From: a virus
Taxonomy: Duplodnaviria; Heunggongvirae; Uroviricota; Caudoviricetes
Virus record (IMG/VR): IMGVR_UViG_2671180444_000002
Reading direction: 5' to 3' (one strand)
DNA: 25,038 bases
Shown here: positions 833 through 25,038 of the stretch, in pieces
How the letters are laid out: the number at the start of each line of letters is the position of its first letter
Numbering within the stretch: position 1 is the stretch's first letter
Made by a program: the position numbers and the translations under genes
Notes under the pieces: generated by a model
Told to the model about the DNA's origin: nothing
Database searches by the model: none
What the model saw: only the letters and a program-made list of their open reading frames with translations

Positions 833-1429
833 TTACCCTATAGGTGCTACTGGCCATTCAATATCCGGTGCAGTTGATGTATCAACACGGTTCAGCAACA
901 CCCGATACTTTTTCCAAGCTTCCAGCAACAAGGTTTCTTTCTCCGTTGCGATCTCCAGATCCACAGCATCCTGAAGCGGCGCTATATGCTCACTGGCTAC
1001 CTGCATCAGGCTGTTTTTTGTTTCTTCCGCCTCCCGGATCCGGAACAGTTTTTCTGCTTCCGTATCCTTCACCCAGGCTGTGCCGTTCCACTTCTGAAAC
1101 NNNNNNNNNNNNNNNNNNNNNNNNNNNNNNNNNNNNNNNNNNNNNNNNNNNNNNNNNNNNNNNNNNNNNNNNNNNNNNNNNNNNNNNNNNNNNNNNNNNN
1201 NNNNNNNNNNNNNNNNNNNNNNNNNNNNNNNNNNNNNNNNNNNNNNNNNNNNNNNNNNNNNNNNNNNNNNNNNNNNNNNNNNNNNNNNNNNNNNNNNNNN
1301 NNNNNNNNNNNNNNNNNNNNNNNNNNNNNNNNNNNNNNNNNNNNNNNNNNNNNNNNNNNNNNNNNNNNNNNNNNNNNNNNNNNNNNNNNNTTTTATGGTC
1401 CGTGCTTGTTCACTCATTCTGAATGCCAT
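833..1429 (-). CDS. tfa: Tail fibre assembly protein Tfa; interior hidden by N-run
   Basis: N-terminus [13 protein letters not shown] and C-terminal half ([25 protein letters not shown]...) match lambda Tfa. Start overlaps the stf stop by 1 nt (TAATG). Confidence 0.9.
1101..1390. other. N-run (unsequenced or masked), inside tfa
   Basis: 290 consecutive n. Confidence 1.
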
Positions 1430-7800: not shown

Positions 7801-8376
7801 GGTCTGTGGTGCTGTCCGGCGTCATTCTGCGCATCCGGATATTAAACGGGCGCGGCGGCAGGTTATCCACCACCACCGAGGCCAGATACTGCGAGGTGGT
7901 TTTGCCCTTAATGGTGATGTCTTTTTCCGTCACCCAGCCACCGTTACGCTGTATCTGAACCAGCAGGCGAACTTCAGACGGATTCCTGTCTCCCTTTGAG
8001 GTGGTTNNNNNNNNNNNNNNNNNNNNNNNNNNNNNNNNNNNNNNNNNNNNNNNNNNNNNNNNNNNNNNNNNNNNNNNNNNNNNNNNNNNNNNNNNNNNNN
8101 NNNNNNNNNNNNNNNNNNNNNNNNNNNNNNNNNNNNNNNNNNNNNNNNNNNNNNNNNNNNNNNNNNNNNNNNNNNNNNNNNNNNNNNNNNNNNNNNNNNN
8201 NNNNNNNNNNNNNNNNNNNNNNNNNNNNNNNNNNNNNNNNNNNNNNNNNNNNNNNNATCCACCGGACCTTCAACCGGCCCTTCGCTGATGGCATCGATCA
8301 CACTCAGCAGCTGCGTGGACTTCAGGTTGTCCTTCGCTTCGCGCGGGGTATGCCCCTTACTGCTGCCTTTACCCAT
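4885..8376 (-). CDS. J: Tail tip / host specificity protein J (central fibre); two N-runs interrupt it and the 3' end is inside the 4672-4884 gap
   Basis: N-terminus [34 protein letters not shown] at 8376; body ([20 protein letters not shown]... through ...[13 protein letters not shown]) matches lambda J. ORF-track entries 7930-8376 and 4658-7933 are the same gene split by a gap whose length is not a multiple of 3. Confidence 0.9.
8007..8256. other. N-run inside the J N-terminal region
   Basis: 250 consecutive n; reading frame before and after differs by one position. Confidence 1.
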
Positions 8377-8436
8377 TCGTCATGCTCCATAAACGATAAA
8401 ACCGCCCGGAGGCGATTTCACATAAAACATTTTGCA

Positions 8437-19464: not shown

Positions 19465-23145
<3,681 letters not shown>

Positions 23146-23171
<26 letters not shown>

Positions 23172-23691
23172 TCAGCAACCCCGGTATCAGTTCATCCAGC
23201 GCGGCTGCTTTGTTCATGGCTTTGATGATATCCCGTTTCAGGAAATCAACATGTCGGTTTTCCAGTTCCGGAAAACGCCGCTGCACCGACAGGGGGATCC
23301 CGTCGAGAATACTGGCAATTTCACCTGCGATCCGCGACAGCACGAAAGTACAGAATGCGGTTTCCACCACTTCAGCGGAGTCTCTGGCATTTTTCAGCTC
23401 CTGTGCGTCGGCCTGCGCACGCGTAAGTCGATGGCGTTCGTACTCAATAGTCCCTGGCTGGAGATCTGTCTCGCTGGCCTGCCGCAGTTCTTCAACTTCC
23501 CGGCGCAGCTTTTCGTTCTCAATTTCAGCATCCCTTTCGGCATACCATCTTATAACGGCGGCAGAGTCATAAAGCACCTCATTACCCTTGCCACCGCCTC
23601 GCAGAACGGGCATTCCCTGTTCCTGCCAGTTCTGAATGGTACGGATACTCGCACCGAAAATGTCAGCCAGCTGCTTTTTGTTGACTTCCAT
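23146..23691 (-). CDS. Nu1: Terminase small subunit Nu1
   Basis: 181 aa, MEVNKKQLADIFGASIRTIQNWQEQGMPVLRGGGKGNEVLYDSAAVIRWYAERDAEIENEKLRREVEEL..., matches lambda Nu1. Confidence 0.95.
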
Positions 23692-23900
23692 TGTTCATTC
23701 CACGGACAAAAACAGAGAAAGGAAACGACAGAGGCCAAAAAGCCCGTTTTCAGCACCTGTCGTTTCCTTTCTTTTCAGGGGGTGTTTTAAATAAAAACAT
23801 TAGGTTACGGCGAAGAAGAACGGAAACGCCTTAAACCGGAAAATTGTCATAAATAGCGAAAACCCGCGCGCCTTCCGCCCCGTAACCTGTCGGATCGCCG
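23692..23900 (-). promoter_or_regulatory. cos: cos site: cosB (R1, R2, R3 Nu1-binding repeats with an IHF-like A/T tract), cosN (cohesive-end core about 23869-23880) and cosQ-equivalent flank
   Basis: Just upstream of Nu1, colinear with the lambda left end. R elements (plus-strand text): GAAAGGAAACGACAG at about 23716-23733, CTGTCGTTTCCTTTC at about 23757-23776, GAAGAAGAACGGAAACG at about 23811-23830. Minus strand reads ...ACAGGTTACG GGGCGGAAGGCG CGCGGGTTTTCGCTATTTATGA... Confidence 0.8.
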
Positions 23901-24079
23901 GAAAGGACCCGCAAAATGATAATAATTATCATCTACATGTCACAACGTGCATCTACGCCATCAAACCACGTCAAATAATCAATTATGACGCAGGTATCGT
24001 ATTAATTGATCTGCATCAACTTAACGTAAAAACAACTTCAGACAATACAAATCAGCGACACTGAATACAGGGCAACCTC

Positions 24080-24313
24080 ATGTCAACGAAGAACAGAACC
24101 CGCAGAACAACAACCCGCAACATCCGCTTTCCTAACCAAATGATTGAACAAATTAACATCGCTCTTGTTCAAAAAGGGTCCGGGAATTTCTCAGCCTGGG
24201 TCATTGAAGCCTGCCGCCGGAGACTGTGCTCAGAAAAAAGAGTTTCGCCTGAAGCAAACAAAGAAAAGAGTGACATTACTGAATTGCTCAGAAAACAGGT
24301 TAGACCAGATTGA
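24080..24313 (+). CDS. Hypothetical 77-aa protein, probable ribbon-helix-helix DNA-binding fold
   Basis: MSTKNRTRRTTTRNIRFPNQMIEQINIALVQKGSGNFSAWVIEACRRRL...: basic N-terminal tail, short beta-strand (RNIRFP), then two helices; fold assignment is by pattern only. Confidence 0.45.
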   Translation: MSTKNRTRRTTTRNIRFPNQMIEQINIALVQKGSGNFSAWVIEACRRRLCSEKRVSPEANKEKSDITELLRKQVRPD

Positions 24314-24370
24314 AGCAATTTAGATAATCGTGCAGACTACGCCCCCTCATATCACATGGAAGGTACTACA

Positions 24371-24781
24371 ATGGCTCAGGTTGCCATTTTTAAACAAATA
24401 TTCGATAAAGTGCGAAATAATTTAAACTATCACTGGTTTTATTCTGAACTAAAACGTCACAATGTCTCACATTACATTTACTATTTAGCCACAGAGAATA
24501 TTCATCTTGTTCTTGAAAACGATAATACGGTTTTAATAAAAGGACAGGGTAAGGTTGTAAATGTAAGATTTTCAAAAAATAAATGCCTTATAGAAGCCAC
24601 CTTAAAAGGATTCAAATCAGGAGAGTTATCATTTTACGAATACAGGAAAAATCTTGCTACAGCAGGGGTTTTCAGATGGATTACAAATATCCACGAAAAC
24701 AAAAGGTATTACTATACCTTTGATAATTCATTACTCTTTACTGAGAACATACAGAACACTACACAAATATTTCCGCACTAA
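24371..24781 (+). CDS. Hypothetical 136-aa protein, possibly DUF1398 family (YbcV / lambda 'putative envelope protein'-like)
   Basis: AT-rich ORF. Shine-Dalgarno GGAAGG lies 7 nt before the ATG at 24371 ([17 protein letters not shown]...). The ORF track starts 5 codons earlier at 24356. Family assignment is from memory of size and position, not a search. Confidence 0.45.
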
Positions 24782-25038
24782 ATCATAACGTCCGGTTTCT
24801 TCCGTGCCAGAACCGGACTCGCTGGCATGATGAAATATGTGTACCCGGTAACCCCGGTGTGCATCGTTTTTGATTATTCCCGCACACTCGCGCAGAAGGA
24901 GTTCCCCGTCGGGCTACGGTCTCTGTTAATACGGGAATACGGCGACGATTGGATTTGCCCCTATATTTCCAGACATCTGTTATCACTTAACCCATTACAA
25001 GCCCGCTGCCGCAGATATTCCCGTGGCGAGCGATAACC

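Follow-up and report, generated by a model that had tools for sequence, protein, structure and literature searches.

The window, a stretch of 25,038 nucleotides, carries on its minus strand the late region of a lambda-like prophage, in which tail genes (a gpJ homologue and genes for side tail fibres among them) lie to the left of the TerL gene. On the plus strand, beyond Nu1 and a cohesive-end site, are two small genes, the first of the DUF3950 family and the second of the DUF1398 family (Table 1). The DUF1398 gene is an orthologue of E. coli ydfO in the Qin prophage, of ybcV in the DLP12 prophage, and of phage lambda gene p78. It is therefore already known and catalogued, under these names and through the protein structure 2HH8, and is an ordinary prophage gene.

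Table 1. Features of the DUF3950-DUF1398 region and of the adjacent part of the late region (positions in the window)
Feature	Position	Strand	Remarks
TerL	21246..23171	-	Late region
Nu1	23146..23691	-	Late region
cosN equivalent (12 bases)	23869..23880	.	End of the linear virion chromosome; 12-base extent inferred from lambda
Fur box, perfect 7-1-7, TGATAATAATTATCA	23917..23931	.	Between cos and the DUF3950 ATG; one match vs 0.01 expected
FNR box, perfect, TTGATCTGCATCAA	24006..24019	.	Centre 67.5 nt upstream of the DUF3950 ATG; one match vs 0.03 expected
DUF3950 (YlcI-YnfO) family gene	24080..24313	+	77 aa, pI 10.9; PF13132 E=2e-20, NF041551 E=9e-9
5' module of the DUF1398 gene	24296..24328	+	GGTtAGACC palindrome (PdhR-box type), weak -35 TAGACC overlapping it, then -10-like GATAAT
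Longer form of the DUF1398 frame	24356..24781	+	141 aa, through an alternative upstream in-frame ATG at 24356
Shine-Dalgarno sequence GGAAGG	24358..24363	+	7 nt ahead of ATG 24371; invariant in the Qin, DLP12 and HK629 copies
DUF1398 coding sequence	24371..24781	+	136 aa, stop TAA 24779-24781; orthologue of E. coli ydfO/ybcV and lambda p78
Hairpin GTCCGGTT(N13)AACCGGAC	24790..24818	+	After the stop codon; fold -15.2 kcal/mol, z=-0.70, no T run

The DUF1398 open reading frame is a real gene rather than a chance occurrence, and it is under purifying selection. At its base composition, 141 codons free of stops have a probability of ~9e-6, and its open frame of 153 codons was reached in none of 2000 shuffles (maximum, 128 codons). 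Comparisons with ydfO, ybcV, and the lambda-type copy give dN/dS values of 0.21-0.35, with dS as high as 0.67; the full range of dN/dS values is 0.12-0.35. A preliminary description of this DNA had proposed a frame of 136 amino acids (141 if started at the upstream ATG), far more AT-rich than the structural genes and equipped with a good Shine-Dalgarno sequence, and all three points stand. The GC content is 0.314 for the gene and 0.318 for positions 24401-24800, versus 0.53-0.63 for the structural genes of the window. Between the two potential start codons, the one giving 136 amino acids is the favoured prediction, because all distant homologues start at the alignment column of ATG 24371, because K-12 ydfO and ybcV are annotated in RefSeq as 411 nt, and because the spacing of the Shine-Dalgarno sequence fits this ATG.

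The family that the preliminary description had guessed is correct: a Pfam search gives a full-length match to PF07166 (DUF1398), covering profile positions 1-119 of 119 with E=3.3e-43 and 147 bits, against a cut-off of 22. Proteins 100% identical to it are encoded in six phage records and in the best 80 IMG/VR loci. The window protein is 76% identical to the product of lambda 47048-47452 (lambdap78, minus strand) and falls within 76-78% identity of lambda p78 and DLP12 YbcV. YdfO of Qin (K-12, b1549) is ~76% identical, and the residues that differ, about one fourth of the total, are mostly located at positions 57-90. Four copies (window, ydfO, ybcV, and lambda-type) share a GC content of ~0.31-0.32. 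The lambda protein (NC_001416, 47048-47452; PHROG 413) has been given the names "head protein", "putative envelope protein", "protein YbcV", and "hypothetical protein" in different records.

The structure of the homologue YdfO was solved in solution by NMR (2HH8), and the window protein matches it at E=1.4e-69. It has the YdfO fold, an internal duplication in which each unit consists of two helices and a three-stranded sheet. A single-sequence AlphaFold model was unusable (pLDDT 47.9), and the prediction was redone with a 35-sequence alignment. The DUF1398 fold matches only 2HH8, and profile searches with both families found no further DUF1398 or DUF3950 relatives in the PDB. No capsid-like fold was matched in the PDB or BFVD. 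Within the 35-sequence set, which includes the window protein, 15 residues are invariant (M1, V14, R15, Y35, I36, Y37, N43, L95, A98, G99, V100, W103, R112, Y114, and E125), and they remain so even between branches of the family that are only 30-36% identical. The protein is basic (pI ~9.4), so a role as a DNA mimic is unlikely. A hydropathy scan, in which the maximum over 19 residues was 0.39, revealed no stretch that is both hydrophobic and long enough to be a signal peptide or to span a membrane; the protein is therefore probably cytoplasmic.

Lambda (J02459) ends on the right at position 48502, which aligns to window position 23881 and places the cohesive-end site immediately to the left. 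At its right end, the virion chromosome consequently finishes with the DUF3950 and DUF1398 genes. The pair is located 200-900 bp from cosN, and the DUF1398 gene 490-900 bp from the right end. Both genes are directed away from cos, antisense to the late operon; the DUF1398 gene is thus on the strand opposite to the structural genes, which corrects the preliminary description. In the nearest phages, Kati, PhiR49_1, and ev099 (98-99% DNA identity), the Rz, endolysin, and holin genes occupy the opposite strand a few hundred bases beyond the DUF1398 gene. The idea that the gene sits in an accessory slot between the lysis cassette and cos holds in that the interval from Rz to cos is variable, but the cassette itself lies outside the window, and we infer its position past the right edge from near-identical phages such as Kati.

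The hairpin that follows the stop codon was rejected as a terminator, given its z value and its lack of a T run. The terminator scan did not report it and found no canonical intrinsic terminator after the DUF1398 gene. Similarity to lambda, Kati, and other phages stops at ~24950, and the last 88 bases (24950-25038) match elsewhere. In E. coli LR-71-1, these 88 bases are found ~460 bp farther from the DUF1398 gene, near a frameshifted IS3-family transposase gene, so the region downstream of the DUF1398 gene is rearranged among strains. Two observations concern other parts of the window. A 148-aa frame at 7930-8376 (minus strand), between the gpI and gpJ homologues, has no Pfam match and lies where GC content falls to 0.207 (8001-8400), and the match of the gpJ frame begins only at position 68 of the FNIII-A domain. 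This frame may be another inserted accessory gene, or it may represent a replaced N terminus of J. Also, an Rfam match to the IS009 RNA family at 873-1071 (minus strand; 218 bits, E=1.3e-53) overlaps a tail fibre assembly gene (833..1429). The DUF3950-DUF1398 region has no Rfam or PADLOC matches.

The gene upstream of DUF1398 scores 72.8 bits against PF13132 (cut-off 25) and 35.2 bits against the NCBIfam model NF041551 (cut-off 30). It had been called RHH-like, and its protein is possibly an Arc/Mnt-like ribbon-helix-helix protein. With the Arc and Mnt repressors it has in common a basic N-terminal tail and then an N-[IL]-R-[FW]-P strand motif, followed by two predicted helices with a G-x-x-x-S turn, and the register found by hhalign agrees with this arrangement. 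The motif and register therefore make the label plausible, but the similarity is not significant: hhalign gives probabilities of 1.8% (Arc) and 0.2% (Mnt), a search of Pfam with 15 members found no RHH family at E values up to 10, and sequence and profile searches found no matching RHH structure in the PDB.

Because the upstream frame belongs to the DUF3950 (YlcI/YnfO) family, the window has the Qin-type ynfO-ydfO arrangement. Qin also keeps DUF3950 adjacent, in the order nohA, cos remnant, ynfO (77 aa), a 57-nt gap, and ydfO. The layouts are the same, except that Qin is a cryptic remnant and the window copy belongs to a lambda-like structural module that appears complete. Among near-identical IMG/VR loci with enough upstream DNA, all 77 have a DUF3950 gene 59-60 nt upstream. 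The constancy of the pair within the lineage of the window is linkage by descent.

The preliminary description had regarded the two genes as a two-gene cassette. Synteny upholds this as a local arrangement, constant in the 77 loci and in Qin, but not as an obligate pairing. In lambda, HK629, and DLP12, the DUF3950 and DUF1398 genes are separated by ybcW/lambdap79, which has the opposite orientation, and bor is found downstream; ybcW and bor are both absent from the window. Phage records with DUF3950 number 155 and those with DUF1398 only 43, a gap that is mostly due to Stx-converting phages, many of which have DUF3950 alone. At 29 species-level loci, a DUF1398 gene occurs with no DUF3950, Nu1, ybcW, or bor-like (at least 90% identical) gene within 3 kb, and these loci include every one with <55% identity except a prophage-borne copy (L158). 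Homology between Qin-type and lambda/DLP12-type loci begins at GGT(C/T)AGACCAGATTGAAGC, ~75 nt before the DUF1398 ATG, and runs on through the GATAAT element and the Shine-Dalgarno sequence; a 5' region of its own thus accompanies the DUF1398 gene. In lambda p78 and DLP12 ybcV, the orientation relative to cos is as in the window, and the 5' module is kept from the PdhR-type box onward. The pair is thus not an obligate cassette, but a local synteny of two separable conserved hypothetical genes.

The two frames are in the same reading frame (24080-24781), and a single TGA (24311-24313) is the only stop between them. Natural TGA-to-TGG variants yield a 233-aa fusion (P0014), but these occur on six contigs only, and in about half of the near-identical loci the spacing between the two frames differs by 1 nt. 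Programmed read-through of the TGA was rejected, since both the shifts in spacing by one base and the rarity of the fusions make it unlikely.

DNA similar to 24000-25038 (1,039 bases, comprising both genes and their flanks) is present in 5121 of 5426 complete E. coli genomes (~94%), and the median genome with any such DNA has three places. Among GTDB species representatives, genuine DUF1398 carriers are found only in the Enterobacteriaceae, in the genera Escherichia, Shigella, Citrobacter, Klebsiella, Kluyvera, Pseudocitrobacter, and Salmonella. Matches of 76% identity in unrelated phyla have the lambda-type order of DUF3950, ybcW, DUF1398, and bor, on contigs of ~3.5 kb or ~48.5 kb. They are filed under Pseudomonas, Kitasatospora, Flavobacterium, a Brevibacillus "plasmid", and others (loci L112-L133, L135, and L144-L148, and many 3.5-kb ENA contigs). 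On the basis of this gene order, the lambda-like identity, and the contig sizes, these are almost certainly lambda control DNA in the assemblies. The ~3.5-kb size fits the 3.6-kb Nanopore lambda control strand.

Orphan DUF1398 genes, including those of the E. coli ycgX type and copies in Kluyvera, Pseudocitrobacter, Klebsiella, and Salmonella, belong to the same Pfam family and are 34-53% identical to the window protein. They keep R15, Y35-I36-Y37, N43, G99, W103, R112, Y114, and E125, but have no DUF3950, Nu1, ybcW, or bor gene within 3 kb. Instead, their neighbours are chromosomal, and the copies whose surroundings were looked up are beside icd/dinI and ymg genes, ttcA, or add. In Salmonella-type IMG/VR contigs (L096, 1535-3336), a distant copy (37% identical) is located ~680 bp from a 240-aa frame that we take to be the effector gene sopE2, and a PP2A-type phosphatase gene and a HigB-like toxin gene are also nearby.

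Potential regulatory sites occur both upstream of DUF3950 and directly upstream of DUF1398. The 5' module of the DUF1398 gene includes a promoter-like site (24301-24328) that was found by a promoter scan; its match to the consensus is weak, and the scan returned 4 sites where 3.2 were expected. Judged from its sequence, the module may function as a promoter. The K-12 equivalents of this element, AAcaGGTcagACCAgaT, were recovered in vitro by genomic SELEX with PdhR, and ybcV mRNA is down 10-fold in a pdhR mutant (PMC7660256).

Qin, DLP12, HK629, and Kati all keep the Fur and FNR boxes that lie upstream of DUF3950. Overlapping the Fur box is a promoter-like site on the minus strand, GTGACA-16-TATCAT, that is directed to cos and Nu1. 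Experiments show binding to the K-12 copies of both boxes: of Fur at "nohA", by gel shift and in vivo titration (PMC2189734), and of FNR at "nohA/ydfO" and "nohB", by ChIP-chip and EMSA (PMC1802558). There is also a K-12 FNR ChIP-seq peak, which was classed as Fur-repressed (PMC3688515). Deletion of fnr had only marginal effects on a promoter fusion (PMC1802558). Judging by its primers, that lacZ fusion extended from inside ynfO to the start of nohA and would have faced nohA rather than ynfO, so only the nohA direction was tested. The FNR box is near position -41.5 of a putative promoter with the -10 element GACAAT (24041-24046), which would correspond to class II geometry for DUF3950 and not for nohA. 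Perhaps, then, the Fur and FNR sites that the literature assigns to nohA are part of the divergent ynfO-ydfO unit, a point that is only mildly new.

Expression data from K-12 papers concern ydfO and ybcV transcripts from cryptic prophages. The ydfO transcript is up 117-fold by qPCR after ionic-liquid shock (PMC4077768), and it changes on induction of DicC. Expression of ybcV is raised in an evolved strain that tolerates solvent, along with that of bglH/bglF, kilR, and ybcK (PMC7181518). The passage on ydfO in PMC4077768 also cites, at second hand, a finding that overproduction of YdfO raises resistance to oxidative stress. Wang et al. 2010 was rejected as the source of this claim, as ydfO is not mentioned there. 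A clone overexpressing ybcV is viable and had a glycogen phenotype in a screen. A TraDIS study called ydfO "essential", and this call was left out as evidence because the paper offers no account of it that would inform function. The AT content of the gene and the identity of co-regulated genes suggest silencing by H-NS.

On balance, the best overall explanation is that the DUF1398 gene is an accessory gene of the lysogen that is autonomous and conditionally expressed. By its GC content, and by its presence in 43 phage records rather than the 155 of the adjacent DUF3950 gene, it resembles a moron, the term used in the preliminary description. CRISPRi knock-down of lambdap78 leaves plating at 1.3-1.9, which indicates that the gene is non-essential (PMC10695390). 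We consider it highly probable that the gene is non-structural, an accessory gene of the moron type that the phage does not need for lytic growth and that works for the lysogen, as does its neighbour bor in lambda. Like lambda bor and lom, it is a non-essential extra gene of the late region with deviant composition, is variably present, and is antisense to, or independent of, late transcription. Its sequence is unrelated to both. Bor and Lom are exported outer-membrane proteins with roles in serum resistance or adhesion, and expression from the prophage is documented for bor.

Whether the gene is usually poorly expressed and turned on by way of host regulators seems to us an evenly balanced question. 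Two routes might serve. First, the conserved 5' region of the gene, with its PdhR-type box, could drive DUF1398 directly. Second, transcripts could read through from the DUF3950 promoter, with its FNR box in the class II position and the Fur box farther upstream. As for the protein, a tentative suggestion, which we would not press, is that it is neither an enzyme nor a toxin and instead binds a host macromolecule through the sheet residues Y35, Y37, W103, R112, and Y114, thereby shifting stress physiology.

An alternative, which we judge unlikely, is that the gene encodes a single-gene phage-interaction factor, acting either in superinfection exclusion or defence by the lysogen, or early in infection as counter-defence from the first-injected end. 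The right end of lambda enters the cell first, and the DUF1398 gene is within 1 kb of this end, in a variable accessory region between Rz and cos. Loss of ydfO is listed once among the changes in phage-resistant APEC mutants, and the adjacent gene in lambda, lambdap79, is what the Vulcan defence system senses (bioRxiv 10.64898/2026.09.04.749371). However, among 5027 defence models in PADLOC-DB the only match for DUF1398 is a chance match to Csx23 (E=0.025), and DUF3950 matches none. Moreover, orphan copies are beside ordinary chromosomal genes rather than in defence islands, the basic character of the protein is not that of a DNA mimic, and the literature examined reports no experimental phage phenotype.

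Regarding lambdap79 itself, it is reported to be the trigger of the Vulcan NADase defence, and escaper phages are suggested to have lost it by recombination with Qin (bioRxiv 10.64898/2026.09.04.749371). The window has no ybcW/lambdap79 gene (24314-24370; compare L087, 3596-4251), and this is the arrangement that such recombination would give.

It is improbable that the gene is a functionless hitch-hiker, a remnant that is kept through its linkage to cos. Its dispensability in lambda would be explained in this way, as would low expression in standard conditions, which is implied by its conditional induction. Nevertheless, the dN/dS values were obtained over substantial synonymous divergence (Qin, DLP12, and lambda-type copies), the fifteen invariant residues persist across deeply diverged branches, intact orphan copies are maintained in several genera, and the Shine-Dalgarno sequence and 5' module are conserved, all of which count against this reading.

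Very improbable is a toxin-antitoxin or abortive-infection cassette of two genes that opens with an RHH antitoxin or repressor and continues with a small toxin. In its gene order, in its 57-nt spacing, and in the small size of its genes, the pair does resemble type II toxin-antitoxin loci. The basic N terminus of the DUF3950 protein, its N-x-R-x-P motif, and its hhalign register with Arc and Mnt are suggestive of an antitoxin, and both the retention of the pair in 77 of 77 near-identical loci and the rare natural fusions of the two proteins are consistent with a joint function. In contrast, DUF1398 occurs alone at the 29 species-level loci and in every orphan context that was looked up, the pair is split by an opposite-strand gene in lambda and DLP12, and >100 phage records have DUF3950 without DUF1398. 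There is no PADLOC match, and the RHH assignment is not significant (1.8% by hhalign, with no RHH match in Pfam or the PDB). A toxin role specifically is unlikely because lone copies exist in many genomes, because YdfO could be made in the amounts needed for NMR (2HH8), and because the clone overexpressing ybcV is viable.

Finally, a virion or envelope component, as would follow from the label "head protein" (PHROG 413, RefSeq lambda, and several phages) or "putative envelope protein" (GenBank and older lambda records), deserves almost no credence: the first name is unsupported because the gene is antisense to the late operon, is non-essential in lambda under CRISPRi, and encodes a fold unrelated to any capsid protein in the PDB or BFVD, the second because the protein is basic and has no hydrophobic stretch that could form a signal peptide or membrane segment, and the gene is moreover absent from most lambdoid phages with the same packaging genes and occurs as a chromosomal orphan.

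An accessory gene that is autonomous, conditionally expressed, and of use to the lysogen thus remains the preferred reading. A more far-reaching form of it, which we offer as a long shot, is that the genes at the first-injected end make up an environment-sensing module that reads the oxygen, iron, and pyruvate status of the host and alters stress tolerance or phage susceptibility. DUF1398 would then be a previously undescribed macromolecule-binding fold, and the "nohA" FNR and Fur sites would control the divergent ynfO-ydfO unit.

The gene is found in textbook phage lambda, DNA similar to the two-gene region is present in ~94% of complete E. coli genomes, and the structure of a close homologue has been available since 2006. 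The public names of its protein, "head protein" and "envelope protein", are contradictory and unsupported. The gain for annotation is a description of DUF1398 as an autonomous, cytoplasmic, non-structural accessory gene. The Fur and FNR boxes upstream of DUF3950 and the PdhR-type box upstream of DUF1398 would focus experiments.
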